From contig CAYMTM010000001.1 in assembly GCA_964393375.1 (NCBI GenBank), positions 258 through 64,257 on the forward strand: DNA of 64,000 bases, in the 5' to 3' direction. The stretch is from an uncultured Rhodospirillaceae bacterium. GTDB taxonomy: Bacteria; Pseudomonadota; Alphaproteobacteria; JAEULC01. Below, in pieces: positions 2,775 through 60,895 of this stretch; within the stretch, counting starts at the first letter, position 1, and each line of letters begins with the position of its first letter. The notes beneath the pieces are model-generated. The model searched no databases, had not been told where the DNA came from, and worked only from the letters and a program-made list of their open reading frames with translations. Position numbers and translations under genes: made by a program.

Positions 2775-2775
2775 C

Positions 2776-3573
2776 TCAGGCCGCGGACGTGGCCCGCAGC
2801 GTGCGGTCGGAAGCGACGATGTCGCCGAGCTGGCGCATGAAGTCGCGGTAATACGCCGTCGTGTAATGGAAGGGCTCCAGGCTCCACTTGTGCCCGGCGT
2901 CGCCCAACCGATACTCGGGCCTGGGGCGGATGGTTCGAATCGCCGCTGAATCCGCTTCGATCCTGGCATAGTAGGTCGACAGGACCTCGTTGATCGCGTG
3001 GATTTCGTCGCGGTTCGGGAACTGGACGACCTTTTCCTCGCCGTCGAGGAAGCATTCCGACCACAGCGCTTCGTGCAGGATGGTGCGCTCGGGCGGCACG
3101 ATCGTCCCGAGCCGCCGCATGAAGCGGGGTATGTTCGAAAGCGTCGCCTCCACGACGCGTGGATCGAGCGCGCCGCGCCGTTCGAACCGGCTGGTGTCGA
3201 TGCCGTGGGCCTGGGCCGTGCGCACGAAAGGCACCGAATAGCACAGGCAGGTCTCGCCGGAGACCAGGATCGAGTGGCGCTCGTCGATCAGGTCGACAAG
3301 CAGGTAGTCGAATTCGTGCTGGGCGAGGGTGTCGAATTGCAGCTTCAGCAGGTCGATGGCGACACAACGCTCCTCGAAGGGGCGCCGCTCGACCGTCGGT
3401 GCGATCCGGTCGATCGGCGGCGCCGGTGACAGGCTCGAGTTGATCGTCGTGCGGGCGAGGTAGACCGCGATCGTCCATTCGCCCCGCGGTTCCCCCGATA
3501 GCTCGAACGCATCGCGGGTAACGCAACTTCCGAAGATGCCGAACCGCAAGGCGTTTGCCCCCTTTTTCGTCAT
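2776..3573 (-). CDS. hypothetical protein, DUF6270-like (GSCVxRD N-terminal motif); likely polysaccharide-cluster accessory enzyme
   Basis: 265 aa. The N-terminus MTKKGANALRFGIFGSCVTRDAF resembles the DUF6270 family seen next to glycosyltransferase clusters. It is divergent from the multi-GT gene and shares an AT-rich promoter region with it. Family recalled from memory. Confidence 0.5.
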   Translation of the reverse strand: MTKKGANALRFGIFGSCVTRDAFELSGEPRGEWTIAVYLARTTINSSLSPAPPIDRIAPTVERRPFEERCVAIDLLKLQFDTLAQHEFDYLLVDLIDERHSILVSGETCLCYSVPFVRTAQAHGIDTSRFERRGALDPRVVEATLSNIPRFMRRLGTIVPPERTILHEALWSECFLDGEEKVVQFPNRDEIHAINEVLSTYYARIEADSAAIRTIRPRPEYRLGDAGHKWSLEPFHYTTAYYRDFMRQLGDIVASDRTLRATSAA

Positions 3574-3682
3574 TGCGGCGCCCGGGACCTGGACACCATG
3601 GACAGGTTTATATTGACCTTTATTAAGGGACCGTTAGCCATTCGCGCGTTAGAAAAAGCTCGGCGCAAATGGAGCGAGTTAG

Positions 3683-6600
3683 ATGATAAACTCCTATATT
3701 TTTAAGGACCTTATGACCACACCTCAAACTCTTCATTTGCGCGGCGTCTGTCCTCAATTCGGTGTATTTACGCTTAATTTTATTGATGAGAACGGACTGC
3801 AGCCGCTTCACATGGCCTTCCGGGTCAGCGTCGGCCATATCGCGCTGAACGACAATCTCAAGGGCCATTGGGGTGAGGAACTTGTCATCGACAACGTCGA
3901 GTTCCCGATGGGCCTGCCGTTCGAGATCAGCATCGAACTCCTGGGCCGTCAGCGCATTCGGCTCTCGATGGACGGCTCCGTGCTCGGCGAGTTCCCCTGG
4001 CGCCATGACATCGCGGCGGCAGTACGATTGGACATGGTGGACGTCGAGTTCAGCCTGTTCCGCAACGACACCAGCTTCAAGACCCTTCCCGAGAACGTGA
4101 TTGCGCCCGAAGAAGAGGCAGCGGAGCCGGGGCAGGCGGCGGCGCGGTTCGAGGACGGTTCGGATCAATTAGCGCGGCATTTGCGCGAATTGCGCGCCGA
4201 TTACATGCAGGGGCTCGAACGGCTGGAGAACCGGATCGAGGGGATTTCGGAGGAGCTGCGCGCGCTGCAGAAGGTCGCCTCCGGCATCGCCGCCAGCGTG
4301 CAGGCCCTCATCGCGCTTGACGTGCGCGCGGTGGAATCCGCGCAGCGCCCTGCCGGCGCACCGCGGATCGCGCCGCCGCAGGCATCGCCGCGCGGACTTG
4401 TGGTGGAGGACAAGTTCGTCAAGGGTTGGGGCGACTGGCGTCACCACCAGAAAGTCAAGCTTTCCGACCTGGGCCTGTTCCAGGTGCAGCAGGAGCGCAG
4501 CACGCCCGGCATCGAGCGCAAGGCGCTCGCCGTGGAGCCGGGGTCCTATTACGAGTTCTCGGTGACGGGAAACTTCAAGGTCGCCAATCGCGAACTGTTC
4601 ATCGCCGCCTACGACCCGGACAACGATCTGACGCTGACCGCCGCCCGTTATGCCGAGAAGGAGTCGGGCACCGTCACCGAGACTTTCATGACCACCGCGC
4701 GCACCAAGCGGGTGATCCTGCGCGTCATGGTCGACCAGCCGAAGATCGGCGACGAATGCCGTCTGGAAAGCGCAAGCCTGACCCTGCTTGGGCGCGCCGA
4801 CCTCTACGCGCCGGCGCGCGCGGGAGAAGCGCAGCCAGAGGAGGGCATCTGCGCGTCGATGGCGTCGGTCGCCGGGCGCGAGGCCATGGTGGTCGACGCG
4901 GTGCTGAGCCTCTATCCCTTCGTCGACAAGGTGCGCGTGTACCTCAACAACTATTCCAGCGTGCCCGAGGGCCTGAAGCTGCCGCGCGTCGAGATCGTGC
5001 GGTCGCAGCAATACGGCGACAACGGCGACGCAGGCAAGTTCTTCTGGGTAGAGGACAAGCAATATCCGTTGAATCTGGTCTGCGACGACGACCTGATCTT
5101 TCCGCCGGACTACGTGCCGCAGATGGTTGCCGCGCTCAAGCGGTGCGGGAACAAGGCGGTCGTCGGCATCCACGGGGTGCTGTTGAAGCAACCCTCGCCG
5201 TCCTATTACGACGAGAGGTTCCGCCATGTGCGCCGCTATCCGCACGCCAACCGCGAGGACTGCCAGGTCCATGTGCTGGGCACGGGTGCGGTGCTCTACG
5301 ATCGGCGCACGCTGAAGCTCGAATGGCGCGACTTCCAGTACCGCAACATGGCCGATATATGGCTCATGGAGCAGTGCCAGAAGCAGGGCATTCCGTCGAT
5401 CTGCATCGCCCGGCCGCGCAATTGGGTGATCCAGAACCAGGTCAAGGGCGGCGTGCCTACCATCTATGACGCCTCGCACGGCCGGCAGGGCAACGGCTTC
5501 GACACCGGCGCGGTCCAGACCTATGTGGTCAACAAGAACTGGCCGGTGACACTGAAGCCAACGGTCGTCAACGGCCAACGCCGGCCGAAGGTCGTCCTGT
5601 CGATCACGACCTGGAACCGGTGCGACTACCTGAAGGAATGCATCGAATCGTTCGAGCGTACGCGCTCCACCAGGTACGATTGGGTGCTGATCGTGGCGGA
5701 CGACGGTTCGACCGACGGGACGCTCGCCTATCTCGACCAGCTCGTCCTGCCGCACGAGGTTCACGTCATCCGCAACAAGGGGCGCTATGCCTGCGGACAG
5801 ACGAATACGATTTTCGATTTGTGCCGGAAGATCGGCTTCGACTTCGCCTTCAAGATCGACGACGACATCCTGTTTAAGAAGCGCGGCTGGGACACGCTCT
5901 ATATCGAGGCCGCAGCCGCCAGCGGTTACGACCATCTCTGCCACCGGAATTGGAAGCACTTCACGGGGTTGAAGCGCCGCAACAACCCCAACTACTCGCC
6001 GCCGCCGCCGCATATCGACGCGTCGGGAAAGTGCGAGACGATCGTCGGGGTGTGGGAGTGCGACGGGTGCCTGTTCACCTTCACGCCGACGATGATCGAA
6101 AAGGTGGGTTATTGCGACGAGGCCAATTTCCCGATCCGCGGCCAGTGGCATATCGACTACTCGATCCGGGCCTGCCGTGCCGGCTTCAACGACGCCAAGC
6201 ACTTCTACGACGCGCGCGACAGCAACGCCTATATCGAACTGCAGGCCAACAAGCCGACCTATCGCTGCTCGCTGCCCTGGGGCGACGCGTACAAGAAGAC
6301 CAAGGAACCGGCGGAGCTCGAGCGCCGCGAGCGGGTGATGCGCGACGAGAGCCGTGTCTACGTGGCGCCGGTGAGCGCGCCGGCGCCGCTGCGGCGGCCG
6401 TTGCGGGCGGCGACGTTCTTCGACAAGGTCTACGTGCTGAACCTCGACCGCCGGCCCGATCGGCTGGCGACGGTCAGTGCGCATCTGAAGCGCCTGGGCA
6501 TTCCGTTCGAGCGCTATGCGGCAGTGGACGGCCGCGCCAAGCCGCATATCGACGAGTGGAGCGTCTATCAAAAGCAGCCCCTCGTAACCGCCCCCGAGGG

Positions 6601-7306
6601 CGTACGCAAGCTGACGCGGTCCAAGGACTTCTACCAGAACTACGACAGCCACGTGGCCCGCGTCGCGTTCATGGAGGGCCAGCTGAAGGCCAAGGCGATC
6701 CGTACACCCGGCGCCTGGGGCTACTTGAAGAGCTATATCGGCATCCTCGAAACGGCGCTGAAGGCCGGGTACGAGTCGATCCTCGTGCTGGACGATGACG
6801 CGCTGTTCCACCGCGACTTCGACGCGCTGTTCCAGGCTGCGGCCAAGGAACTTCCGCCGGATTGGGCGATCTTCCAGCTCGGCGCCCTGCAATACGATTG
6901 GGGCGACCAGTGGATCGCCAAGTATTCCGAGCACCTCTATATGTGCAACGGCTCGAGCGTCGGCTCGCATGCCACCGGCATCCGGCGCAGCGTGCTGCCC
7001 GCCCTGCTGCACGAGGCACAGCGCTTCGACATGCCGCTCGACGTCGGTGCGCTGTGCCGGGTCAAGCGGGCCTTTGCGGAGCGCAGCTTCACCGTCCTGC
7101 CGAACTTGGTCATCCAGGACACCAGCGAGAGCGACATCGCGTCCTCCGATGTCCAGCAGGCCGAGGGGATGAAGAAGACGAATATCTATCGCTGGAAGCT
7201 GGAAGACTATCCGGGCGCGATCGTGGAAGCGGACGCCAGGCAGCGCAACCCGCGCCGTCCGGCCGCCAAGCAGGCGCAAGCGGCCGCCATGACGGGTACG
7301 GACTGA
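3683..7306 (+). CDS. 1207-aa multidomain glycosyltransferase: N-terminal galectin-like lectin domain, coiled coil, beta-sandwich, then three GT domains (GT-A with DDD motif, GT2-like, GT25)
   Basis: SD GGAGCGAG before the ATG.
- aa ~40-110: LHMAFRVSVGHIALNDN..GHWGEEL..FPMGLPFEISIEL parallels the galectin CRD motifs HFNPRF / VCN / WGxEE / FPF..F.I.I.
- aa ~150-215: heptad-rich coiled coil.
- aa ~400-600: GT-A fold with LVCDDDLIFPPDY.
- aa ~635-900: SITTWNRCDYLKECIESF..LIVADDGSTDGT (GT2-like).
- aa ~915-1150: FFDKVYVLNLDRRPDRL (the GT25 LPS/LOS galactosyltransferase signature).
The first ~120 nt of the coding region is AT-rich. Confidence 0.8.
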   Translation: MINSYIFKDLMTTPQTLHLRGVCPQFGVFTLNFIDENGLQPLHMAFRVSVGHIALNDNLKGHWGEELVIDNVEFPMGLPFEISIELLGRQRIRLSMDGSVLGEFPWRHDIAAAVRLDMVDVEFSLFRNDTSFKTLPENVIAPEEEAAEPGQAAARFEDGSDQLARHLRELRADYMQGLERLENRIEGISEELRALQKVASGIAASVQALIALDVRAVESAQRPAGAPRIAPPQASPRGLVVEDKFVKGWGDWRHHQKVKLSDLGLFQVQQERSTPGIERKALAVEPGSYYEFSVTGNFKVANRELFIAAYDPDNDLTLTAARYAEKESGTVTETFMTTARTKRVILRVMVDQPKIGDECRLESASLTLLGRADLYAPARAGEAQPEEGICASMASVAGREAMVVDAVLSLYPFVDKVRVYLNNYSSVPEGLKLPRVEIVRSQQYGDNGDAGKFFWVEDKQYPLNLVCDDDLIFPPDYVPQMVAALKRCGNKAVVGIHGVLLKQPSPSYYDERFRHVRRYPHANREDCQVHVLGTGAVLYDRRTLKLEWRDFQYRNMADIWLMEQCQKQGIPSICIARPRNWVIQNQVKGGVPTIYDASHGRQGNGFDTGAVQTYVVNKNWPVTLKPTVVNGQRRPKVVLSITTWNRCDYLKECIESFERTRSTRYDWVLIVADDGSTDGTLAYLDQLVLPHEVHVIRNKGRYACGQTNTIFDLCRKIGFDFAFKIDDDILFKKRGWDTLYIEAAAASGYDHLCHRNWKHFTGLKRRNNPNYSPPPPHIDASGKCETIVGVWECDGCLFTFTPTMIEKVGYCDEANFPIRGQWHIDYSIRACRAGFNDAKHFYDARDSNAYIELQANKPTYRCSLPWGDAYKKTKEPAELERRERVMRDESRVYVAPVSAPAPLRRPLRAATFFDKVYVLNLDRRPDRLATVSAHLKRLGIPFERYAAVDGRAKPHIDEWSVYQKQPLVTAPEGVRKLTRSKDFYQNYDSHVARVAFMEGQLKAKAIRTPGAWGYLKSYIGILETALKAGYESILVLDDDALFHRDFDALFQAAAKELPPDWAIFQLGALQYDWGDQWIAKYSEHLYMCNGSSVGSHATGIRRSVLPALLHEAQRFDMPLDVGALCRVKRAFAERSFTVLPNLVIQDTSESDIASSDVQQAEGMKKTNIYRWKLEDYPGAIVEADARQRNPRRPAAKQAQAAAMTGTD

Positions 7307-7376
7307 CCGCAGGGCGCCGGGACGCGGCCGAGTGCCGCCCAGCGGCGCCCGATCCGGGGCGGGAACGGAGACCCAC

Positions 7377-9989
7377 GTGATCCCCCGAATCCTTCATTAT
7401 GTCTGGGTCGGCGGTCGGCCGCTGCCGGAGAAATCCAGGATCAATATCGAGACCTGGAAGCGGTTCTGCCCGGATTTCGAGATCCGGGCCTGGACCGACG
7501 ACAACGTCGCCTTCGACCGGCCATACCTGGCGCGCTGCCGGGCGCTCGGCCACTGGGCCAACGCGTCGAACTACTTGCGGCTGGAGAAGCTGCTGGAGCA
7601 CGGCGGAGTCTACCTGGACGTCGATATCATGATGCGCCGGACGTTGGCACCTATGCTGCGAAATCGCTGTTTCCTGGGATTCCAGGTCGAGGCCCAGGAG
7701 AACGACTGGGTCAACAATGCGGTCTTCGGCGCCGAGCCCGCCCACTGGTTCGTTGCGCTGTGCCGCGACCGCCTGCTGGCTGAATTCGACGGCGCCGAGC
7801 CGGCGAACCACTCCTCGCCCCGATTGGTGACAAGGCTCCTGCTCGAGCAAGGATTGACCCGCTATCGCCCGGGCGGCGTAATGGTGCGGGACGTCCGTGT
7901 CTATCCGCAGCCGGTATTCTATCCCTACTCGTGGAAGGAGGAGTTCACGCTGGGGGCGATCAGGCCGGAGACGGCGACGGTGCATTTCTGGGAGAAATCC
8001 TGGCACATTGATGCGGCTGCCCGACCGGTCGGCGACGAGGAATTGCGTGCGCGGCTGGCGAGGCTCGAGATCGCGCATCATCGCCTGATCCGCGACGCCG
8101 TGCTGGCGGTCGCGCCGCGGCCCGAGGGTCGGTGGTCGTGGGCGGGACTTCGCTATTGGTTCCAGCGCCTGGGCCGTCCCCGCCGGCACGCGGTCAGGCC
8201 GCTGCTACTGGCGGGCGCGACGTCCTTGTGGGCGTTGCTTGCGTCGCCGGTTCTCGCGGCAGCCGCTTGCGGCCTTTCTTTCGACGATGCCGGCTTGCGC
8301 GCAGGCCCGGTGGTAACCGGCGGGGCGACGGTCAGGCGGGTGGGGTGCGCATCCGACGCCGCCTCTACCCATCATTGTATCGCCATCGTGCTGGAAAGCG
8401 GCGATCGTGCGTCCGTGGCGCGCTTTACCGCCGCCGCCCCGCGGCCGTACCGGCTTTGGCTGCGGGTAGGCACCGATGCGCGGTCGGGCAAGATGCGGCT
8501 GGGACTCAACGACGGCCCGGTGCGCGACTGGTTCGTTCCGCCGACGCAGGCCGGTAACTGGCAGCTTGTTACGCTGCCGGACGGTAGGACGCCCGCGATG
8601 TTCGATCTCAAACCGGGCGAGAACAGCCTGCGTATCGAGCCGCCGACCGATGGCAGGACCGTCGCGGCGGCGGATTGCGCCGTATTGTCGGCCGACCCGC
8701 ATTTCATCCCCACCTTCACGGCCGTGCACGAGCTCGACCGCGCCTGGTCGGGCGTCGGCGTGCTGTTCGACGCCTTGGCCGACGAGCGCAACGTCTATGT
8801 CGGCTATTACAATGCCGAGCGGATGCTGTCGGCGGCATCGTTCGATCGCGACACCAGATCGTGGCGCCGCGTGCCGCTGGCCAGCCGGTTCGAGGGCTGG
8901 GACAACCACAACGCCATCGCTCTGGCGCTCGACAAGGCGGGCAATCTGCATGTCGCCGGCAACATGCATGCCTCGCCGCTGGTCTATGCCCGCACGGCCG
9001 AGCCGCGCCGCCTGGAAACGTTGCAGCTGCTCAACCGCATGGTCGGGTCGGACGAGGCCAGGACGACCTATCCGACCTGGGTGGCGATGCCCGATGGCGG
9101 CTTGGCCTTCATCTATCGCTCGGGCGTTAGCGGGACAGGGCAGCACGTCATCGACGTCCTGGTCGACGGCCAGTGGCGCCGGCAAGGCGACGCGGCGCTG
9201 TTCGGCCAGGCTTCCGGCGGCTTCAGCGCCTATCCGACCGATCCGCTGCGCGGACCGGATGGCCGGCTGCACATGGCCTGGGTTTGGCGGCGGACGTCGG
9301 AGGCGCAGACGACCTTCCAGGTTTCCTATGCGCGCAGCCGGGACTTGGTTCACTGGGAAGACGCGGCCGGCAAGCCGCTCCAGTTGCCGCTGCGGCCGGG
9401 GCCGATGGGCGTGGTCGACAACGTGCCGGAGCGGGCGGGCCTGGCCAACCAGGTGGTCCTTGGGTTCGACGCCGAGGGCCGGCCGATCGTCTCCTACCTG
9501 AAGTTCGACGCCAAGGGCGCGACACAGCTCTACAACGCGCGGCCGACGGCCGCGGGGTCCTGGCAGATCGTCCAGACCAGCGACTGGCAGGACCGTTGGG
9601 AATTCGAAGGCCGCGGCACGATCCAGGCGCTGGTCCGCCTCGAGGCGGCGGCAGTGGACGATGCCGGGGCGCTGGTCCAGGGGGTGCGGCACTGGCGCGC
9701 CGGTCGGTTCGAGTTCGTGCTCGATCCCGGAACGCTGCGGCCCGTGGCGGCGCGTCCGCCCAAGCGCATGCTGCCCTGGGTGCTGACCCAGCCGAGCACG
9801 GACGAGCCCGGCTTCTTCGCGATTGCGATCCCGGTCCGCGACGCGCGGGCCGCCGGCAAGCCGACCGGCTTCGTCCTGCGCTGGGAGGCGCAGAACAGCG
9901 ACCGCGACGCAATGCCTGCCTGCACGCCGCAGCGCCCGCGCGCCTGCGACCCGCCGCCGTCGCTGTTGACGGTGTTGGAGAAACGATGA
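7377..9989 (+). CDS. glycosyltransferase (sugar-binding DXD-region family, GT32/Gly_transf_sug-like) fused via a TM segment to a C-terminal BNR_4-like beta-propeller domain
   Basis: GTG 7377 has SD GGAGA 7 nt upstream; ATG 7332 is an in-frame alternative. The N-terminus has ILHYVWVGG..P and YLDVDIMM (DXD), typical of the sugar-binding DXD GT family. A hydrophobic stretch LLAGATSLWALLASPVLAAAA follows at aa ~280-305. The C-terminal ~550 aa carries repeated His/Trp-rich blades (NLHVAGNMHASPLVY, RLHMAWVWRRT) resembling BNR_4-type propellers. The propeller assignment is tentative. Confidence 0.65.
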   Translation: MIPRILHYVWVGGRPLPEKSRINIETWKRFCPDFEIRAWTDDNVAFDRPYLARCRALGHWANASNYLRLEKLLEHGGVYLDVDIMMRRTLAPMLRNRCFLGFQVEAQENDWVNNAVFGAEPAHWFVALCRDRLLAEFDGAEPANHSSPRLVTRLLLEQGLTRYRPGGVMVRDVRVYPQPVFYPYSWKEEFTLGAIRPETATVHFWEKSWHIDAAARPVGDEELRARLARLEIAHHRLIRDAVLAVAPRPEGRWSWAGLRYWFQRLGRPRRHAVRPLLLAGATSLWALLASPVLAAAACGLSFDDAGLRAGPVVTGGATVRRVGCASDAASTHHCIAIVLESGDRASVARFTAAAPRPYRLWLRVGTDARSGKMRLGLNDGPVRDWFVPPTQAGNWQLVTLPDGRTPAMFDLKPGENSLRIEPPTDGRTVAAADCAVLSADPHFIPTFTAVHELDRAWSGVGVLFDALADERNVYVGYYNAERMLSAASFDRDTRSWRRVPLASRFEGWDNHNAIALALDKAGNLHVAGNMHASPLVYARTAEPRRLETLQLLNRMVGSDEARTTYPTWVAMPDGGLAFIYRSGVSGTGQHVIDVLVDGQWRRQGDAALFGQASGGFSAYPTDPLRGPDGRLHMAWVWRRTSEAQTTFQVSYARSRDLVHWEDAAGKPLQLPLRPGPMGVVDNVPERAGLANQVVLGFDAEGRPIVSYLKFDAKGATQLYNARPTAAGSWQIVQTSDWQDRWEFEGRGTIQALVRLEAAAVDDAGALVQGVRHWRAGRFEFVLDPGTLRPVAARPPKRMLPWVLTQPSTDEPGFFAIAIPVRDARAAGKPTGFVLRWEAQNSDRDAMPACTPQRPRACDPPPSLLTVLEKR

Positions 9990-10831
9990 CCGAGCCGCGC
10001 AAGTTCGACGGGGTGGGCGGTCGCCTCGTCGTACTGGCGGTCACGACGTTCAACCGCCGCGACTATCTGCGCGAATGCCTGGAATCCTGGGCGGCGACGC
10101 GCAACCCCGCCTATCGCTGGCTGGTCGTCGTCGCGGACGACGGCTCGACCGACGGCACGCTGAATTATCTCGAAAAGCCCGACATCCCGGCAGATTGCCA
10201 TCTGATCCGCAATGTCCGACGCGGCGCAGGCGGCCAGACAAACACGATCTTCCAGCTCTGCCGCCGGCTGGACTACGCCATCGGCTTCAAGATCGACGAC
10301 GACCTGGTCTTCAAGCGGAAGGGCTGGGACGACCTTTACATCAATGCCGTTCGCAGGAGCGGCTACGAGCATCTCTGCCACCTGAATCTGCGGCTGTTCA
10401 ACGCCGAGCGTCGCCCGCCGGTGCCGCTCTCGGCGGGCAGGCCGCTGGCCCTCGACCCGTCGGGGAGCTGCGCCGCCTACACCGACGTATACAACTGCAT
10501 GGGCTGCCTGTTCACTTTCACCCCCAGGCTGCTCGCGGCGGTTGGCAATGTCGATGAGTCCAACTTCCCGATCCGCGGCGACTGGCATATCGACTATTCG
10601 GCCCGCGCGGCACGCGCCGGCTTCAACCGCGTCGACACGTTCTTCGACGCCCGCGACAGCGGCCGCTATATCGACATCCAGAACAACCTGAAAAGCGTCT
10701 ATCAGCATACGATCGCGCCGCACAGCGCGCAGATGCGCGCCGTCTCCAGCCCCGCCGAGATCGAACGCCGGCGCAAGGTGGTGCGTGACGAGACCCGCGT
10801 CTTCGTGGAGATGGCAAAAAAGGCGGGCTGA
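9986..10831 (+). CDS. GT2-like glycosyltransferase, paralogue of the middle domain of the 1207-aa protein
   Basis: Its ATG overlaps the upstream stop as ATGA at 9986-9989. The 281-aa product (VVLAVTTFNRRDYLRECLESW..VVVADDGSTDGTL..FKIDDDLVFKRKGWD..CMGCLFTFTP..NFPIRGDWHIDYS) aligns residue-for-residue, at roughly 50-55 % identity, with aa ~635-900 of ORF 3683..7306. The longer 9173 start in the track is an off-frame extension. Confidence 0.75.
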   Translation: MTEPRKFDGVGGRLVVLAVTTFNRRDYLRECLESWAATRNPAYRWLVVVADDGSTDGTLNYLEKPDIPADCHLIRNVRRGAGGQTNTIFQLCRRLDYAIGFKIDDDLVFKRKGWDDLYINAVRRSGYEHLCHLNLRLFNAERRPPVPLSAGRPLALDPSGSCAAYTDVYNCMGCLFTFTPRLLAAVGNVDESNFPIRGDWHIDYSARAARAGFNRVDTFFDARDSGRYIDIQNNLKSVYQHTIAPHSAQMRAVSSPAEIERRRKVVRDETRVFVEMAKKAG

Positions 10832-10873
10832 GCCCCTATAATGCCGGCAGCGAAGCCCGGGAGGAGGGCGGCA

Positions 10874-11290
10874 ATGCCGGTGATTTATGTGGCAAGGAGC
10901 TTGTTGCTGCAGAAGTGGAGCGCCGAGGTGGGGCTCGGCAAGCACGTCTACAAGGTCGGGATCGGCGAGGGCAAGGCAGCCGAGATCGAAGCGGCGCTCA
11001 ATGCGCAGAGCCTGGCCGGAATGACTGACTGGAAGGCATTGAAAGTGCAGAAGCTCGATGAACCGGTCGACGAGGCCGCCGCGCTCGCCCGGCTGGCCGG
11101 GCGCGAGAAGGAGATCGACCCCAATTTCTATCCCCGGATCCGGGGCGCACGCGGCATCTTCAAGGTGAAGGTCGAGAACGTCGCCAATTCATTGCTGGTG
11201 CAGCAGGCGCTCGGCACCGGCGAGCTGAAGATCGACAAGGTGAAACCCGCCGATATAGCCGCCTACCTGATCCGCAACGCAATCGAGTAG
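10874..11290 (+). CDS. small hypothetical protein (possible GIY-YIG/T5orf172-like N-terminal motif)
   Basis: 138 aa from ATG 10874, preceded by SD GGGAGGAGGG. The N-terminus PVIYVARS...HVYKVGIGEG loosely resembles T5orf172/GIY-YIG openings. No confident family assignment. The 10841 ATG is an in-frame alternative. Confidence 0.45.
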   Translation: MPVIYVARSLLLQKWSAEVGLGKHVYKVGIGEGKAAEIEAALNAQSLAGMTDWKALKVQKLDEPVDEAAALARLAGREKEIDPNFYPRIRGARGIFKVKVENVANSLLVQQALGTGELKIDKVKPADIAAYLIRNAIE

Positions 11291-11295
11291 ACGGG

Positions 11296-29796: not shown

Positions 29797-30863
29797 CCGA
29801 GATCGAGACGCAGGAAATCGAAGAAGGCGTAGCTCTCCATCAGACGGTCGGGATCGATCTTGAGGAAACTTGCGGCCGGCAGCGGGGAAGAGGTGTCCCC
29901 CTGCGCTTTGATCGGCGGCGGGCCTTTGGCGAGTCCGCCCAGCAGATCATGGGGGCTGCTCTGCGAGGCGGCTTGGACATGCACTGGCCCGCAAGCAAAG
30001 GGCGCGTAACCATGCGCCTGGAACCGATGCCGGATCCAGTCACGGCTGTTGAGACGTTCCTCGCCCAGGTTCTGATACAGGAACAGGCCTACATCCGAGT
30101 CCTCGAGGACCAGCTTGGCGAGATGAATCAGGTAGCGCGCGGCGAACGGGTCCATCTCGCCCATCGCCGCATCGCAAACCACGACGTCCGCCTTGATGGG
30201 CGTCGATCGAAACAGCTCGGCGAAATGCCACCACGGGATCAGTGCGGCGCGTCCGGGAGGGAATGCGGCCGGCGGCGTGTCGGAGACGGCATAGTCCGTC
30301 AGATCGCCGCGCGCGATCCAGCGAAACAGGCGGTGCTGCCAAAGATACAACGCCTGGGTATTGTCGATCCCGACATAGCGATGGCCGCGCAGGAGACAAT
30401 AGGCGCCGAGGAACCCCGAGCCGGGTCCGACCTCGAGGACGCGCAGCCGGCGCCCGCGATGCGCGGCCGCGGCCTCGATCAGCCGGAGGATCGGCAGGGG
30501 CGGGAACAGGCACATCAGCGGCTGGACCGGCCGCCGGAAGAGTCTTGCCGTGAGCGTCTCGACCTCGCCCCGCAGAGTCAGGATGGCGTCCTGTTCGGCC
30601 CGCGACCATTCCAGGCGATTCAGCCAGTGGTCGCGGTCGAGGAGCTCGTACATGATGTCCGCGTAGCGGCGTAGCTCCGATTCCTGTGACACCTGCGTTG
30701 GGAAACCCACTTGCGCGAACGCAACGGGCGCGAACGACCGGATTGCGGGATAGGTCGCGCGTGCACGGGCGGCCGCCTGGCGGCGGTCGTACTCCTCGAT
30801 CGACAGGACGGGCAGCGCGGCATCGCTGGGCGGCGCAAGCGTTGCGAAAGGGTCCGGTGTCAT
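29793..30863 (-). CDS. class I SAM-dependent methyltransferase
   Basis: 357 aa from ATG 30863 (MTPDPFATL...). Motif I is LEVGPGSGFLGAY. The ATGA overlap with the upstream MT stop indicates coupling. The 729-aa ORF in the track fuses this gene with antisense junk. Confidence 0.7.
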   Translation of the reverse strand: MTPDPFATLAPPSDAALPVLSIEEYDRRQAAARARATYPAIRSFAPVAFAQVGFPTQVSQESELRRYADIMYELLDRDHWLNRLEWSRAEQDAILTLRGEVETLTARLFRRPVQPLMCLFPPLPILRLIEAAAAHRGRRLRVLEVGPGSGFLGAYCLLRGHRYVGIDNTQALYLWQHRLFRWIARGDLTDYAVSDTPPAAFPPGRAALIPWWHFAELFRSTPIKADVVVCDAAMGEMDPFAARYLIHLAKLVLEDSDVGLFLYQNLGEERLNSRDWIRHRFQAHGYAPFACGPVHVQAASQSSPHDLLGGLAKGPPPIKAQGDTSSPLPAASFLKIDPDRLMESYAFFDFLRLDLG

Positions 30864-31891
30864 CGCATGCCGACGGTTCTGGCCGCGCGGCCGAGCACGC
30901 GCCGCCACAGGGGACGGCGACGCGCAACGGGCGTCGGCATGGGGGTGGGAGGCGGCGGACGCCGTGCCGCGCCATCGAGCGGCGCAACGCCTTCCATCCG
31001 CTGGATCGGGGCGCGCAGCTTTTGCTCGCGCATCGGCTTGGCCAGGGCGACAAACATAAGATCGAACACGAAGCAAAGATGATGCCGCTCGGCCGGATAG
31101 GTGGCGTCGCCGGCGTCCCCGGGCGATAGGGATTCGAGGACCGCCCGTGTCTCGCCCGATAAGATGTTGGCGTGAAACCGGCGGACGACCTTCGTCATGA
31201 ACGTCTGCGTGTCTTCCATGTCGTGAAGCTGAATCGGCAGCCCGTCGAATTCGAACCGGCACGGCGGTCGCTCGGCTTGCAGCTTCTCGCGCACGAACAT
31301 GTTGTCGACATAGGAGAAGTCGAGCAGGCGATAGCCGTTGGCGCGGGCGAACTCGACGAACAGGTTGGGATTCGGCGTATAGAAACCGTGATTGGAAAAA
31401 GCAAAGGCCGGCACCACATGGAGCGCGACGCCGCCCGGCTTCAGCAGCGCATGCATGGTCTCGAAGACCCGCGCGATGTCGTAGACATGTTCTGCGGTGC
31501 CGAAGTCGGTAACGATGTCGAACTGGGGCAAGCCCTCGGCCGCGCGGTTGAGGTCGAGCTTGTAGGTGGCGCGATCGTCGTCCAGATCGGCGGAGCAGTA
31601 CTTCTCGACACCGAACAGCGCATAGTAGGCGGCCTGCCCGTCGCGTCGCGGCGTTTGCCCGTCGTACACCGCGGCGGCACCTACGGCGGCCGCGCCGCCC
31701 AGCGCCTGCTGCGCACGCGCCTCGAGATAGGCGCGCGGCACTTGGATGTCCTGCGGCCCAAGGTCGATCAGGCTGGCGCCGGCCGGCAGGAAACTCCGCC
31801 CATGCAGGCGGAACATCCACTCGGTATGCACGCATCCTATGGCCATGAACGCCGGTTCCGGCTGGTTGGCGCCGATTGACCGGCCTTGCAT
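30860..31891 (-). CDS. class I SAM-dependent methyltransferase (Methyltransf_11/12/23-like)
   Basis: Conserved DIVTDFGTAEHV / LLKPGGVALHVVP core. It has a low-complexity Pro/Arg tail. The start is uncertain (ATG 31891 or 31846); I chose 31891 to avoid overlap with the FkbM gene, which ends at 31948. Confidence 0.6.
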   Translation of the reverse strand: MQGRSIGANQPEPAFMAIGCVHTEWMFRLHGRSFLPAGASLIDLGPQDIQVPRAYLEARAQQALGGAAAVGAAAVYDGQTPRRDGQAAYYALFGVEKYCSADLDDDRATYKLDLNRAAEGLPQFDIVTDFGTAEHVYDIARVFETMHALLKPGGVALHVVPAFAFSNHGFYTPNPNLFVEFARANGYRLLDFSYVDNMFVREKLQAERPPCRFEFDGLPIQLHDMEDTQTFMTKVVRRFHANILSGETRAVLESLSPGDAGDATYPAERHHLCFVFDLMFVALAKPMREQKLRAPIQRMEGVAPLDGAARRPPPPTPMPTPVARRRPLWRRVLGRAARTVGMR

Positions 31892-31947
31892 ACAAGGCGG
31901 TCCAGCAGCGGTCAACGGCAGGTCGGTGGCGGGATGTCCGCGCAGGT

Positions 31948-33753
31948 TCAGAAGGTCGAGCTGCCGCGCACCGGCGCCGCATCGCCGCGGTAAAGAGCCG
32001 CGGCCGTATCGACGGCAGCCGTCAACGCGGCGGCTTGCGCCTGATCGCCGGCGGCGCGGAGGCGGGCGGCAAGCCATTGGCTGACTTCGAACGCGAATTC
32101 CACCTGCCCGAAGACTTCGGCGATCACTGCAAGCTTGATGGTTTGGTTCGTGTCAAGGGCCGTGAGCCCGCTGCTGCCGTCCGCGTCGACGGGATCACGC
32201 AAATACAGCGAATGCCCCTCGATCAGTTGGCCCCAGCTCGACACGAGTTGGCCCAGGCGGCCCACGAAGCCCGGCAAATGCTGGACGACGACCGGCGCCG
32301 CGGCACGCCCGACATAGTGATGGGCGACCAGGTCGAAGAAGGTGAATCCGGCGCGACGCAGGAAGGCGTCGATGTCGGAGAAGAACGGCCGCGCGAGATA
32401 GGATTCGACGAAGGCGGTCTCGGCCAGCACGCCCAGCATCCCGTCGAGGCATGGGCCGGCGGCTGCCAGAATGTCCAGCTCGGCACCTTGCACGTTGAGC
32501 TTGCAGAAATCGATCGCGGGGACGCCGGCGGATGCGGCCCATCGCGCGATCGAGGTGACCGGCATGTCCACGGTGCGCTCGGGCCGGAAAATCTCGCGCG
32601 CAAGCGACGTTTGGTGCGGGTTCTCGAACCGCCACCGGTCCGTGACCTTTGTGTTCTGATCGAGAAACGAACTGCCGCCGCTTGCCTTGTTGACGTGAAA
32701 GGGCAGCCTGCCGTCGTCCTTCCAAAGGCCGACCGGATAGTAGGCGCCCTGATAGCCGAGGTCGCGCAGGGTGCGGTTGAGGCGCTCGCATTCCGGCGGG
32801 TCCGGCTCGAAGCCGTGGAAGGAAAGGCGGTCCGCCGGCAGCTCGCGCCAGCGCGGATCGGCATGGGCGTCGCGCGCGCCTCCATCGAGCACGACAATCC
32901 GTTCGCCGCGCGGCAGCATTGCCAGGAGTCCCGGCGCAAGGCGCAGCCGCGGCTCCGGCTGGCGCGTTGGCGCGGCAGGGTTAGCCGTCCCGGCGCCGTC
33001 GGCCTCTCCAGCTCCGTCCAGATAGCTCGCCACTTGCCGCGCGATCTCGCCGATGTTGCGGCTGCCCGTCTGCTGGCGCGCCAGGTGGACCACGGCTGCC
33101 CATCCGCCCTCGTTGGAGGGATCGCGGCGCAAGAGGCCCTGGAAGACCCGCGCGGAGTCGGCGAAGCGGCCCAAATGGGCAAGCACCTGGCCCAGCGTGG
33201 CGCGCGCCGTGAGGTTGGCGGGATCGAGCGCGATCGCTTCCTCGAAGGCGGCAAGCGCGTCGTCGTAGCGCCCAAGCCGGGCATGGATGCTGCCGAGCTG
33301 AAACCAGGTATCGGCGCGGCGCGGCGCGAGCGCGCTTGCCACCCGGGCAAGGCGCTCGGCCTCGGCGGGATGGCCGGCATCGACGGCAGCGACGGCCGCC
33401 CCGAGAGCCGCGTCCGGATCGGAGACGCGCTCGATCAACGCCGAGAGTTCCGCCGCGCGCCCCGCCCTTACCAGCGATCCAAGCAGTTCCGTCTGCGCGA
33501 GCCGGCCCGCGCCGCGGCCAAGCCCATCCTGCAAGGCAGCGATTTTGAGCGGCAGTCCGCCGTGCACTTCCAGGAACCTGCCGAGGGCGGCCCAGGATTC
33601 ATCCGAGTCCGGCACGAGGCGCACGGCACGCGCATAGGCCCACTGTGCGTCGTGGAAACGACCGCGCCGGGCCAGGTAGGTCGCTTGCAGGCGCCCCAAC
33701 AGCCCAAACCGATGGCGGGCCGCGGAGACAAGCCGTTTCAGGTGCTGCTTCAT
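31948..33753 (-). CDS. TPR-repeat protein fused to an FkbM-family methyltransferase domain
   Basis: N-terminal TPR-like Ala/Leu repeats (AEAERLARVASALAPRRADTWFQLGSIHARLGRYDDALAAFEEAIALDP). The C-terminus has the FkbM signature (FHGFEPDP...IDFCKLNVQGAELDIL). The start at ATG 33753 is uncertain because there is no clear SD. Confidence 0.7.
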   Translation of the reverse strand: MKQHLKRLVSAARHRFGLLGRLQATYLARRGRFHDAQWAYARAVRLVPDSDESWAALGRFLEVHGGLPLKIAALQDGLGRGAGRLAQTELLGSLVRAGRAAELSALIERVSDPDAALGAAVAAVDAGHPAEAERLARVASALAPRRADTWFQLGSIHARLGRYDDALAAFEEAIALDPANLTARATLGQVLAHLGRFADSARVFQGLLRRDPSNEGGWAAVVHLARQQTGSRNIGEIARQVASYLDGAGEADGAGTANPAAPTRQPEPRLRLAPGLLAMLPRGERIVVLDGGARDAHADPRWRELPADRLSFHGFEPDPPECERLNRTLRDLGYQGAYYPVGLWKDDGRLPFHVNKASGGSSFLDQNTKVTDRWRFENPHQTSLAREIFRPERTVDMPVTSIARWAASAGVPAIDFCKLNVQGAELDILAAAGPCLDGMLGVLAETAFVESYLARPFFSDIDAFLRRAGFTFFDLVAHHYVGRAAAPVVVQHLPGFVGRLGQLVSSWGQLIEGHSLYLRDPVDADGSSGLTALDTNQTIKLAVIAEVFGQVEFAFEVSQWLAARLRAAGDQAQAAALTAAVDTAAALYRGDAAPVRGSSTF

Positions 33754-34083
33754 CCGAGCGATCGAACTTGCGGAGGGGCGAAGGGCCGCAGAGTAGCGGG
33801 TTTCTGTTCGCGCGAGTAGGCCCCTTCGCCACGCGACCGGAGGCCCGGTGCACCCGGTTGCCCGCATGGCGCAGCCAGCGCGGCGCGAGCCGTGCGGGCC
33901 AAGCGTGACAGTCGGCATCGCGATAGATATATAGGGCCGTCGCTGAGCGTCCATGACGGCGAAGGGCGAAACCGGAGTAGGGGCTAGGACAACCAGTCCG
34001 AAGACTGCTTTGGCGCAATCTGGCTACTCCTGAAGACGTGACAGATAAAGAGGGGCGCGTGGTCCAATGCGCCAGGAGCGATT

Positions 34084-35403
34084 ATGCGCGTTGCCGTGTT
34101 TGGTTTGGGTTATGTAGGTGTCGTTTCGGCTGCTTGCTTGGCCGAAGGAGGGCATGACGTCATCGGGGTCGACGTCAACCCCGTCAAGGTCAAGATGGTC
34201 TTGGACGGAACGTCACCAATCCTCGAAGATCGCATCGAGGACCTTGTGAAGGCGGCGGTCGCCGCCGGGAAGTTGCGCGCCACGGGCAGCGCCGAAGAGG
34301 CGGTCGCCGGCTCCGACATTTCGCTGATCTCCGCGGGGACTCCCTCGGGCCCCACCGGCGCTCCGATGCTCGACGCCGTCGACGCCTGCGTCGAAGCGAT
34401 CGGGCGGGCCATTCGCAGCGGCAATCCGAACAACCACACGGTCATTGTCCGATCGACAATTCCGCCGGGGACAACGGAGAAGCGCTTGCGGCCGATACTC
34501 GAGAAAGCCAGCGGGCGCACGATCGGCAACGGCCTCGACCTTTGCTTCAATCCGGAATTCCTGCGCGAGGGCTCGTCCGTTCACGATTTTCATCATCCGC
34601 CGCAGACGATCATCGGCTCGTTCACGGCCGAGGGACACGAGGCCGTCGAGCGGCTCTATGCCGGGATCGAGGCGCCCGTCGTCCGCACCAACTGCACGCT
34701 CGCAGAGTCAGTCAAGTATCTTTGCAACGCGTTTCACGCGGTGAAGATCGGCTTTGCCAACGAAGCCGGCGCTGTCCTGAAAGCGATGGGCGTCGATGCC
34801 CGAGACGCGCTGTCGGCGCTATGCAACGACACCGTGCTGAACATTTCGCCCGCCTATCTTCGCCCCGGCTTCGCGTTCGGCGGTTCCTGTCTACCGAAAG
34901 ACCTGAAGGGATTTCTTTACGCTGCCCAGCAGCACAATGTTCGCCTGCCATTTCTGGGACATTTGCTGGAAAGCAATCAGGCGCATATCGACCGCGCGTT
35001 CGACATGATAGCGCGGCTCGGCAGGCGCAAGGTGGCCCTGTTCGGCCTGGCGTTCAAGCCCGGGACGGACGACTTGCGGGAAAGCCCGCTCGTGACACTG
35101 GCAGAACGGTTGATCGGCAAGGGGTACGAACTCGCGATCTACGACCGCTACGTGGATGCAAGCCGCCTGCTGGGGAAGAACCGTGAGTTCATCGATCGCG
35201 AAATTCCGCATTTCGAGCGGCTTCTTGCCGCGAGTGCGGAAGAAGCGATAGCGCGATCCGAGACGATCGTGGTCGGTCATGCCGATCGGGCAGCACAGGC
35301 GGTGATCGCATCGGGCCATGGCGGCAGGCCGGTGATCGACCTGCAGGGGTTGCGCGCGCTGCAGACAGCGGAGGGCATGCGCTACGAGGGCATCTGCTGG
35401 TGA
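34084..35403 (+). CDS. algD: GDP-mannose 6-dehydrogenase (AlgD-type nucleotide-sugar dehydrogenase)
   Basis: 439 aa with SD AGGAG. The alignment with Pseudomonas AlgD (sequence recalled from memory) is nearly colinear: MRVAVFGLGYVGVVSAACL / NPEFLREGSSVHDF / YLRPGFAFGGSCLPKD / FKPGTDDLRESPLVTLAERLIGKGYELAIYDRYV. This is clearly not the UDP-glucose type, which is represented separately at 55924. Confidence 0.85.
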   Translation: MRVAVFGLGYVGVVSAACLAEGGHDVIGVDVNPVKVKMVLDGTSPILEDRIEDLVKAAVAAGKLRATGSAEEAVAGSDISLISAGTPSGPTGAPMLDAVDACVEAIGRAIRSGNPNNHTVIVRSTIPPGTTEKRLRPILEKASGRTIGNGLDLCFNPEFLREGSSVHDFHHPPQTIIGSFTAEGHEAVERLYAGIEAPVVRTNCTLAESVKYLCNAFHAVKIGFANEAGAVLKAMGVDARDALSALCNDTVLNISPAYLRPGFAFGGSCLPKDLKGFLYAAQQHNVRLPFLGHLLESNQAHIDRAFDMIARLGRRKVALFGLAFKPGTDDLRESPLVTLAERLIGKGYELAIYDRYVDASRLLGKNREFIDREIPHFERLLAASAEEAIARSETIVVGHADRAAQAVIASGHGGRPVIDLQGLRALQTAEGMRYEGICW

Positions 35404-55923: not shown

Positions 55924-57246
55924 TCACCCGGCCGGCGCGAGCGAGGCGCGGCCGATCGAGTGGTAGGTGAAGCCCTGGGCCGCCATGTCGGCGGGATTGT
56001 AGACGTTGCGCAGGTCGACGATCAGTTTCCGGCGCAGGAGCTGGCGCATCCGGTTCACGTCGAGCGCGCGGAACTCGTTCCACTCCGTGACGATCACCAG
56101 GCAGTCGGCGTCGGTCATGGCGTCGTAGGCATTTTCGCACCACGCCACGCCGTTCAGCAGCTTCCTGGCTTCCTTCATGCCCTCGGGATCGTAGACGCGC
56201 ACCGTGGCGCCGGCCTTGACGAGCGCCGGCACGATGTCGAGCGAGGGCGCGTCGCGCATGTCGTCGGTATTGGGTTTGAACGTAAGGCCCAGGACGGCCA
56301 CCGTCTTGCCCTGGACCGACCCGCCGCAGGCCTTGACCACGCGCCCGGCCATGGATTTCTTGCGCGCGTCGTTCACGGCGATCGTGGTCTCGACCAGCTT
56401 GAGCGGCGCGCCGAAATCCTGGGCGGTTTTGGCGAGCGCGAGGGTGTCCTTGGGGAAGCACGACCCGCCGTACCCGGCGCCGGCGTGCAGGAACTTGCGG
56501 CCGATGCGCCCGTCCAGACCGATCCCGCGCGCCACGTCGTTGACGTCGGCACCGACCTTCTCGCACAGGTCCGCCACCTCGTTGATGAAGGTGATCTTGG
56601 CGGCCAGGAAACTGTTGGCGGCGTACTTGATCAGCTCGGCCGTCTCCAGGCCGGTGAAGACGATCGGCGTCTCGATCAGGTAGAGCGGCCGGTAGAGCGC
56701 GCGCATCACCTCGCGGGCGCGGTCGCCGTCGGCACCGATCACCACGCGGTCGGGGCGCATGAAATCGCCGATCGCCGAGCCCTCGCGCAGGAATTCCGGG
56801 TTCGAGACCACGTCGAACTGGGCATCCGGCCGCTCGGCCTTGATGATCTTGTGCACCTCGCGTCCGGTGCCGACGGGCACGGTCGACTTTGTGACCACCA
56901 CGGTGTAGCGCCGGATCGACTGCGCGATCTCCTTGGCGGCGGCAAACACGTAGCTGAGGTCGGCATGCCCGTCGCCGCGCCGGCTGGGCGTGCCCACGGC
57001 GATGAACACCGCGTCGGCCTCGGCCACCGCCGGCCCCAGCTCGGTCGAGAAGCTGAGCCGCCCCGCGCGCACGTTGTTTGCGACCAGCGTGTCGAGGCCG
57101 GGCTCGTAGATCGGCATCTCGCCGCGCTTCAGTCCCTCGATCTTCGCCGCGTCCTTGTCGACGCAGGCGACATGCACGCCGAACTCCGAAAAGCAGGCGC
57201 CGGAAACGAGGCCGACATAGCCGGTTCCGATCATCGCGATGCGCAT
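55924..57246 (-). CDS. ugd: UDP-glucose 6-dehydrogenase
   Basis: Start at ATG 57246 with SD AAGAGG (MRIAMIGTGYVGLVSGACFSEFGVHV...). GGSCFPKD catalytic Cys. 441 aa. The upstream 630-aa extension in the track is rejected. Confidence 0.9.
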   Translation of the reverse strand: MRIAMIGTGYVGLVSGACFSEFGVHVACVDKDAAKIEGLKRGEMPIYEPGLDTLVANNVRAGRLSFSTELGPAVAEADAVFIAVGTPSRRGDGHADLSYVFAAAKEIAQSIRRYTVVVTKSTVPVGTGREVHKIIKAERPDAQFDVVSNPEFLREGSAIGDFMRPDRVVIGADGDRAREVMRALYRPLYLIETPIVFTGLETAELIKYAANSFLAAKITFINEVADLCEKVGADVNDVARGIGLDGRIGRKFLHAGAGYGGSCFPKDTLALAKTAQDFGAPLKLVETTIAVNDARKKSMAGRVVKACGGSVQGKTVAVLGLTFKPNTDDMRDAPSLDIVPALVKAGATVRVYDPEGMKEARKLLNGVAWCENAYDAMTDADCLVIVTEWNEFRALDVNRMRQLLRRKLIVDLRNVYNPADMAAQGFTYHSIGRASLAPAG

Positions 57247-57287
57247 GAACTCATACCTCTTGGATCCGGAACCGGCGCGCCGGCCGG

Positions 57288-60549: not shown

Positions 60550-60895
60550 GTCGCGCTGTGGGCGCGAGGCGCCGCGCGCGTCCCGCCGGGCGGCACCGTC
60601 GACCAATCCGGTTGCTCCAATTGCGCCCCCGCAGGGGATTCCTCACGGGCTGGGACAAGCCGTCCGGCGATGATCGAGGCGCGCCAGGGCCGCGACGAGG
60701 CGGTTGAGCCGCGACCGTTGACAAAGTGGGCCGAAATCGCTTGTTATCAACACCTTAGAGCCAACGCTCGGGCTAGGCGGCGGCTCTTTGCCATTTCTTA
60801 ATGTGAGCCAAATCACGGGCTTGACCGCCGCACTGTGGTAGTCTGTCCGGCGTGAAATGTATTTCGCGCGGGCAACCGCGCGGGCGAGGTCGGCC

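Follow-up and report, generated by a model that had tools for sequence, protein, structure and literature searches.

We analysed a stretch of 64,000 nucleotides (nt), hereafter the window, from an uncultured Rhodospirillaceae bacterium (GenBank assembly GCA_964393375.1, contig CAYMTM010000001.1), and found a cassette of three co-directional genes on the forward strand (3683..7306, 7377..9989, and 9986..10831) whose products include two copies of one glycosyltransferase family 2 (GT2) module. The GC content of the window (63–71%) made the lists of open reading frames (ORFs) noisy, and a filter on the GC content of third codon positions (GC3) left a clear gene set. The first gene (GC3 0.86) encodes a multidomain glycosyltransferase of 1207 amino acids (aa), identified by Pfam and PDB sequence matches and called here the big protein. 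One GT2 module (F; aa 637–894, 5591..6364) is fused inside it. The second gene, whose ORF had been listed from 7332, encodes a fusion of a GT32 transferase and a propeller, and the third encodes a free-standing GT2 transferase of 281 aa (S; 9986..10831). There are five transferase domains in the cassette: the big protein consists of a galectin-like domain, a helical segment, a beta domain, a GT45-like domain, F, and a GT25 domain, the middle protein contributes GT32, and the last one is S. The stop codon of the middle gene (TGA, 9987–9989) overlaps the start codon of the S gene (ATG, 9986–9988), so that the ATGA overlap (9986..9989, forward strand) of the original prediction can be read directly from the sequence, and GGAGA lies at 9977–9981, 4 nt upstream of the S-gene ATG. 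Ordinary metabolism and peptide transport genes flank the cassette in the window.

The original prediction had described the 281-aa protein as colinear with aa ~635–900 of the 1207-aa protein. In a BLASTP comparison, aa 15–274 of S aligned with aa 637–894 of the big protein with 138 identities in 260 positions (53%), 70% positives, and an E value of 7e-93, which is far beyond chance; the alignment has only two gaps of one residue each. This identity is above the ~30% that had been set as the lower limit for a relationship, and all five motifs quoted for the pair were present in S and F in the same order. Both modules matched PF00535 (cut-off 23.3 bits), F over aa 635–770 of the big protein with 73.8 bits and S with 47.7 bits. 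No third copy of the module was found in the window by tblastn. Judged from their sequences, S and F belong to a single GT2 subfamily and are true paralogues, encoded together in a conserved operon.

The AlphaFold2 (AF2) model of S has a GT-A fold (predicted local distance difference test score, pLDDT, 94). When this model was compared with the PDB by Foldseek, TarP, K4CP, and TarS were matched with probability 1.0 at template modelling scores of ~0.53; these are generic GT2 neighbours only, and the comparison gave no clue to donor or acceptor. The DDD of S (aa 104–106) ends strand E97–104 and is invariant in S, F, and the outgroups. The family-wide invariants include D104–D106, H201, and D203 in S numbering, and D203 in RGxWHIDYS could be the catalytic base, a suggestion made from its position only. 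A total of 82 columns, including ADDGSxDGT, DDD, and RGxWHIDYS, were conserved (at least 90% consensus) and identical in the S and F clades, and fixed differences between the clades were limited to 7 columns. The identity of S and F was 57% and 68% in two conserved cores, and 40% in aa 126–175 and 226–275 of S.

Age of the Two GT2 Modules and Selection on Them

The phylogenetic relationship of the two modules was investigated with neighbour-joining (NJ) trees. In the tree of 17 fused and 34 free-standing modules, the two kinds were reciprocally monophyletic, with bootstrap values of 85 for the fused and 100 for the free-standing modules. In the NJ tree of 200 modules taken from an exhaustive profile search, the S clade and the F clade each had 100% bootstrap support. 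Pairwise identities among F modules and among S modules of six loci were strongly correlated (r = 0.93), as expected of co-divergence, and the identity of S and F within a genome (0.47–0.55) was equal to that between genomes (mean 0.52). At the DNA level, S and F were 63% identical (third positions 56%) and shared no exact run longer than 19 nt. A recent duplication or gene conversion was ruled out by the third positions and by the equality of the within-genome and between-genome identities. These results showed that the duplication is older than the radiation of the cassette clade as a whole and that S and F have co-diverged without gene conversion.

The ratio of nonsynonymous to synonymous substitution rates (dN/dS) was estimated against the orthologues from two related loci, L004 and L006; synonymous sites were near saturation across the relatives compared. 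The ratio was 0.045–0.056 for F, which was under tighter constraint than any other domain of the big protein, and 0.15–0.18 for S, which evolves about three times faster than F. Both copies are thus under purifying selection, and both have kept all of the family-invariant motifs. Taken together, the trees, the co-divergence, the lack of conversion, the dN/dS ratios, and the conserved residues indicate an old duplication with both copies functional.

Domain Architecture of the Big and Middle Proteins

The label "tri-GT", which had been given to the big protein before any database comparison, agreed with the domain matches. The first transferase domain is GT45-like, of the type of KfiA and of the C-terminal half of PmHS2 (aa 385–630, 4835..5572, forward strand). 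A PDB sequence search matched ~200 aa of it (aa 385–586) to KfiA (5z8b, E = 1.4e-14) and to the heparosan synthase B PmHS2 (8vh7, E = 4.6e-24), and it contains a CDDDL motif. The sequence homology to KfiA and PmHS by which membership of GT45, the family of KfiA-type alpha-GlcNAc transferases, is assigned is therefore present in aa 385–630. The second is F, and the third is a GT25 domain (aa 914–1160, 6422..7162, forward strand), which matched PF01755 over aa 914–1086 with 42.4 bits (cut-off 24).

The N terminus of the big protein is galectin-like (aa 1–125, 3683..4057, forward strand). It matched PF00337 over aa 11–116 with 30.6 bits (cut-off 22.1), galectin-4 with an E value of 2e-6, and the galectin domain of an adenovirus fibre with an E value of 2e-9. 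The canonical set of galectin residues binding beta-galactosides is H-x-N-x-R, N, and W-x-x-E-x-R. The H, R, N, W, and E of this set align with residues of the big protein, but two of the seven canonical residues are replaced: the Asn of HxNxR is Ala or Ser, and the last Arg is variable. The positions H..FR, N, and WG.E were kept in 14 of 14 relatives. Between the galectin-like and GT45-like domains (4058..4834, forward strand) lie a helix-rich, heptad-like segment (~aa 155–215) and a beta-rich domain (aa 235–384), neither of which had a Pfam match. The helix-rich segment has a predicted coiled-coil character, and the beta-rich domain recurs upstream of GT45 in relatives with different N termini. 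The big protein has 14 full-length relatives (59–100% identity), all with the same five-part architecture, and some of them are labelled as Alphaproteobacteria or as Rhodospirillales metagenome-assembled genomes (MAGs). Literature searches on the GT45/GT25/galectin combination and on bacterial galectin-like transferases yielded no description of this family. In L002, a free-standing galectin-like protein of 220 aa is encoded just upstream of the cassette.

For the middle gene, the alignment with relatives and the 870-aa products in the protein collection made the GTG at 7377 (M-IPRILHYVWVGG) the most likely start, rather than 7332, which would make the protein 870 aa long rather than 885. It consists of a GT32 domain (aa 1–250), a hydrophobic segment (aa 275–303), a beta-sandwich (~aa 310–440), and a BNR_4 propeller (aa 447–870). 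The GT32 domain matched PF04488 with 38.8 bits (cut-off 23) and PF04572 with 23.4 bits (cut-off 22.3), and YLDVD in its DXD region was kept in all relatives. The hydrophobic segment has a hydropathy of 1.83, with its maximum at aa 284, and is preceded by the Arg-rich RLGRPRRHAVR; by hydropathy, such a segment was found in neither the big protein nor S. The AF2 model of the 870-aa protein (pLDDT 67) has the same domain order, and the propeller is seven-bladed and GH145/PL42-like. PF15892 (BNR_4) was matched with 217.9 bits over profile positions 3–272 of 272, which, with the PF04488 match, bears out the earlier description of this protein as a GT-propeller fusion.

The propeller matched the alpha-L-rhamnosidase BT3686 (5muk) with an E value of 1e-31 and the L-Rha-alpha-1,4-GlcA lyase FoRham1 (7esl) with 3.4e-8 (1.1e-8 from the propeller region alone). 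Its score against the NCBIfam equivalog model of BT3686 (NF052497) was 141 bits, far below the cut-off of 700. These matches class the propeller as a member of the GH145/PL42 family and not as an orthologue of BT3686. In FoRham1, the residues of the anterior, lyase-type site are His85, His105, and Arg166 (PMC8377490). The His/His/Arg set of PL42 was kept in the propeller, in which DNHN, NMHAS, and YRSGVSG align with dgHN, dhHd, and fRiGqSG of FoRham1 (numbering aligned by eye, at an offset of 2 residues). The match to PF15892, the family of BT3686 (GH145) and FoRham1 (PL42), takes in the last 420 aa of the middle protein from end to end. However, the known enzymes of this family are secreted and catabolic and come from degraders of plant glycans (PMC8377490), whereas the propeller of the cassette is fused behind GT32 and a membrane-spanning segment.

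Eight full-length clusters of relatives of this fusion were found, with identities of 52–100%. GT32 was fused to the propeller (836–872 aa) in the window, in L003/L004, in L091, and in five further clusters down to 52% identity, and so the fusion is a stable protein rather than an assembly artefact. The alternative of two separate genes, GT32 followed by a secreted propeller, was rejected for the lineage of the window, given the single frame kept in these eight clusters. GT32 was free-standing (261–285 aa) in L001, L002, L006, and L093. The 285-aa GT32 of L006 has a short hydrophobic tail at its C terminus; this tail can be aligned with the first part of the linker, as though the protein had lost its propeller by deletion. 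L092 has a decayed cassette: a separate beta-sandwich/propeller gene (10444–11847) overlaps the GT32 stop codon, has an in-frame stop, and is truncated after ~170 aa of the propeller, the free-standing GT2 gene is absent, and the 1207-aa gene and GT32 are intact.

Distribution of the Cassette and of the GT2 Subfamily

S has 35 free-standing relatives of ~275 aa (55–100% identity). The genes for the big protein, GT32, and S were found in the same order in six independent contexts (the window, L001, L002, L003/L004, L006, and L091), and in five of the six, L006 being the exception, S was preceded by a 4-nt stop/start overlap. The synteny comparison proposed earlier, which looked for fused versus split arrangements, therefore revealed a constant gene order, with GT32 either fused or free-standing; S itself was free-standing in all contexts that bear it. 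The flanks of the cassette in L001, L002, and L091 were unrelated to those in the window. In L091, from a Rhodospirillales MAG (GCA_016792605.1), the cassette adjoins a phage-type integrase and a DUF5906 gene (2922–4205), which suggests that this copy rides on an integrative element. Because the order is kept in six contexts, the flanks are unrelated, and an integrase is adjacent in L091, the cassette can be regarded as a portable three-gene unit. There was no local sign of recent transfer in the window, where no tRNA gene was found and no strong GC anomaly lay over the cassette.

Two neighbouring genes are uncertain members of the cassette. A 138-aa ORF lies directly downstream of the S gene (10874..11290, forward strand) and had no Pfam or NCBIfam match; it follows the S gene in the window, L003, L004, L006, and L094–L097, and is absent in L001 and L002. 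On the other side, a DUF6270 gene (2776..3573, reverse strand; PF19786, 142 bits) is divergent from the big gene and begins with a GSCVTRD motif; among the relatives, it was found upstream only in the closest ones, L003/L004. A scan of 2700–11500 for promoters and terminators gave fewer sites than shuffled controls and is uninformative in DNA of 65–70% GC.

The wider subfamily was investigated by a profile search of 1.84 billion representatives, in which 259 proteins covered the whole GT2 module at E < 1e-30. The best 150 of these 259 were annotated with the domains of the window. Among these 150, GT2-GT25 didomain proteins numbered in the dozens, GT45-GT2-GT25 tridomain proteins were also numerous, with N termini that were TPR, FkbM methyltransferase, lectin, or none, and a minority of the proteins were free-standing (~250–330 aa). 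The module is thus habitually fused, above all to a GT25 domain, upstream of which it stands, and often downstream of a KfiA-like GT45. This census is more informative about the origin of the tri-GT protein than the S/F pair, and suggests a stepwise accretion around a GT2-GT25 core. The earlier idea of modular fission or fusion within one pathway was right in so far as the subfamily is often fused (more than 100 of the best 150 representatives were multidomain), but a recent or local event is not supported, given the reciprocal monophyly, the equal within-genome and between-genome identities, and the third-position identity of S and F. Four representatives (P0084, P0101, P0110, and P0118; 975–1820 aa) had three matched stretches each in the profile search; two GT2 domain hits were found only in P0084, and so a tandem repeat of the module is suggested for P0084 at most. 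Among the matches listed in a scan of GTDB genomes with the module alignment (generic patterns ADDGSxDG and FKIDDD), there was no close relative; they included a 46% match in Filomicrobium and ~35% matches in Bacteroidota.

Some members of the subfamily are encoded near polysaccharide exporters. The gene for P0054 (locus L087), in which an FkbM methyltransferase is joined to the same tri-GT, follows ABC2_membrane and ABC_tran genes, and that for the S-like P0036 follows ABC2_membrane, ABC_tran, and Poly_export genes. The P0054 operon (L087, 12–10684) contains ABC-2 transporter genes, an 1180-aa sulfotransferase/GT2/GT4 protein, and a GT/methyltransferase protein; L087 is a full ABC-transporter-type polysaccharide locus.

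Possible Functions of the Paired Modules and the Cassette

Considering these results, the S/F pair is an ordinary case of diverged, co-inherited GT2 paralogues in a conserved cassette. We hypothesized that S and F, as ancient paralogues, make two different transfers for one glycan, and give this reading a probability of roughly 0.65. As far as the sequences tell, S and F more likely perform separate transfer steps than a single step encoded twice; from the purifying selection on both copies and their divergence outside the nucleotide-binding core, we infer different acceptors.

Several observations weigh against this hypothesis. Donor, acceptor, and product are known for no member of the GT2 subfamily, and the closest solved structures are generic GT2 enzymes. 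No ABC-2 exporter (Wzm/Wzt or KpsMT), initiating transferase, or flippase was found in the 64-kb window, and so the type of pathway is proposed by analogy. The N terminus of the big protein has a lectin-like fold where coiled-coil rulers have a terminating enzyme, and the helical segment is short (~60 aa). The cassette of L092 keeps the big protein and GT32 intact without S and with a truncated propeller gene; at least one lineage can therefore do without S, which fits an accessory role and also redundancy. Finally, NJ was the only tree-building method, and the placement of S with respect to the fused modules was unstable.

The last point leads to the possibility that S did not arise from F of the same operon, and that distant members of the subfamily were brought together, for example by recruitment of S from a capsule-type locus. 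We consider this origin possible but clearly the less probable one. The 200-module tree grouped S with P0036 (415 aa) and P0073 (509 aa), outside all fused (GT45-)GT2-GT25 modules; P0036 belongs to an ABC-2/Poly_export locus, and F is nearer to tri-GT proteins with other N termini (distances of 0.55–0.60) than to S (0.74–0.80). Nevertheless, this basal position may reflect long-branch attraction, given that S evolves about three times faster. The smallest split that holds both S and F comprised 59 to 91 leaves over the bootstraps, and a parsimony count of synapomorphies placing S with F or with other fused modules had one informative site and decided nothing. Moreover, proteins of the S clade were found only with the lectin-type cassette. 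For the assembly of the tri-GT fusion, about which the original prediction had expected useful evidence from the pair, S and F therefore say little.

The original prediction itself had taken S and F as the same catalytic step encoded twice; on such a reading, the second copy would serve dosage or robustness. All catalytic and donor-side motifs are indeed common to S and F, and the loss of S in L092 left the big protein intact. However, S and F are only 47–55% identical in every genome, with synonymous sites saturated, and redundant copies are not expected to be retained together under purifying selection (dN/dS 0.05 and 0.15–0.18) at such depth. Their divergence is concentrated in the two segments of 40% identity, outside the nucleotide-binding core, and S evolves faster. 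Pairs of same-fold modules known from one polymerase do different steps (PMC11231755; PmHS2, PMC3418500). Redundancy is thus improbable. A catalytically dead S that partners the big protein in a structural or regulatory role is more improbable still: S does evolve faster than F, and inactive GT-A lobes exist in other transferases, but DXD (D104–D106), ADDGSxDGT, and H201/D203 are invariant across S, F, and the outgroups, the model of S is a complete GT-A fold, and its dN/dS still indicates strong constraint.

Comparable systems are known in which several transferases build one glycan. In Klebsiella pneumoniae O7, ORF6 carries a methyltransferase at the N terminus, then a coiled coil, and at the C terminus two GT2 modules with different rhamnosyl transfers, a standalone transferase (ORF7) supplies the remaining step, and WbbB of O12 has three GT modules (PMC11231755). 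The cassette resembles these systems in its one large soluble protein, in which a helical spacer separates an accessory domain at the N terminus from several GT modules at the C terminus, and in having further GT modules as standalone proteins; in O7 the two modules of the same family do different steps. The N-terminal methyltransferase of ORF6 is paralleled by the FkbM methyltransferase at the N terminus of P0054, encoded after ABC-2 transporter genes. In contrast, the N terminus of the big protein is galectin-like rather than a terminating methyltransferase, kinase, or Kdo transferase, and its modules are GT45-like, GT2, and GT25 rather than GT2+GT2 or GT102+GT103; the PDB search gave no significant similarity to those proteins. 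Of the features that define coiled-coil polymerase-terminator systems, adjacent wzm/wzt genes were absent from the 64-kb window and present only for the relative P0054 (L087), and in place of a distal terminating enzyme there were the lectin-like N terminus and the helical segment of ~60 aa. By analogy, the cassette may work like the coiled-coil multi-GT polymerases without being a member of that family.

A second group for comparison comprises the dual-action glycosaminoglycan synthases. PmHS2 (GT2+GT45) is a synthase in which single-action transferases are fused (PMC3418500). The first transferase domain of the big protein is homologous to KfiA, of the KfiA/KfiC system, and to the GT45 half of PmHS2. 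The order GT45 then GT2 is the reverse of that in PmHS2, however, and the extra GT25 and two further transferase genes have no counterpart there. The best PDB sequence match of the GT2 modules was the second GT2 domain of the chondroitin polymerase K4CP, which has two GT2 domains (E = 1e-5), but this match was limited to the generic nucleotide-binding half. There was no evidence of heparosan or chondroitin as the product of the cassette. In Neisseria, the paralogous GT2 genes lgtA and lgtD and the paralogous GT25 genes lgtB and lgtE lie side by side in one small, transferase-only lipooligosaccharide locus; the members of these pairs are free-standing and phase-variable, and differ in the sugar that they add or in the acceptor on which they act. 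They are much more similar to each other than S and F are, and in the cassette one copy is embedded in a 1207-aa fusion.

If S and F make different transfers, as we prefer, the following mechanism can be proposed. Both would be active, UDP-sugar-dependent inverting transferases, performing two different beta-glycosyl transfers with similar UDP-sugar donors and different acceptors in the synthesis of one glycan. The big protein would be the core multi-module synthase, with F acting between GT45 and GT25, and S, like GT32, would be an accessory single-step module for a branch, an adaptor, or a terminal residue, delivered in fixed stoichiometry through translational coupling. By analogy with the relatives in ABC-2 loci and with the coiled-coil multi-GT O-antigen polymerases, the glycan may be assembled on a lipid-linked acceptor, on the cytoplasmic side of the membrane. 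In the lineage of the window, one transmembrane helix would tether GT32 to a periplasmic GH145/PL42-like propeller, which could trim the exported, possibly uronic-acid-containing, product in a lyase- or hydrolase-like reaction. There are two weak hints that the glycan might contain uronic acid: one transferase domain is KfiA-like, and the propeller family is specialised for linkages between a sugar and a uronate. Two UDP-glucose-dehydrogenase-like genes of the window, 23–45 kb from the cassette, are compatible with such a glycan.

A more far-reaching idea, unlikely and put forward as speculation, is that the cassette represents an undescribed kind of glycan synthase, complete in itself and able to move horizontally. 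Where known molecular-ruler polymerases have terminating enzymes, a galectin-like domain on its helical arm would read the chain, either during growth or once finished; the five transferase modules, the two diverged GT2 paralogues among them, would build a glycosaminoglycan-like uronic-acid heteroglycan; and GT32, transmembrane helix, and PL42-like lyase, joined in a single polypeptide, would physically link synthesis in the cytoplasm with trimming of the same polymer in the periplasm.

Taken by itself, the duplicated module is one more routine example of paralogous transferases in a glycan locus and does not change current understanding. We regard the architecture of the cassette as more interesting than the pair; it is an uncharacterised variant of the known multi-module glycan synthases, with a function that is hypothetical. 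The GT2 subfamily itself is uncharacterised, with no solved or assayed member found among its 259 representatives, and appears as a reusable module that is almost always beside GT25 and often beside a KfiA-like GT45. As the S/F pair occurs in several genomes, it offers a natural experiment on the segments that set acceptor specificity in GT-A enzymes. Both the galectin-like domain in a bacterial protein and the fusion of transferase, membrane segment, and lyase are unusual architectures, which might yield new transferase or lyase specificities.

The window also contains other genes, far from the cassette, that are related to glycans or sugar nucleotides. They comprise a TPR-FkbM methyltransferase (31948..33954, reverse strand), another methyltransferase (30860..32077, reverse strand), two genes of the UDP-glucose/GDP-mannose dehydrogenase family (34084..35403, forward strand, and 55924..57816, reverse strand), and a GalU-type nucleotidyltransferase (57288..58163, reverse strand). 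A 2545-aa ORF that consists largely of RTX calcium-binding nonapeptide repeats lies at 36781–44418 on the reverse strand (PF00353, 15 stretches, E = 2e-129). Two further proteins have domain types more often noted in eukaryotes: an 858-aa protein with TPR, Glucodextran_B-like, and caspase (Peptidase_C14) domains at 60857–63433, and a 342-aa WD40 propeller protein at 51066–52094.

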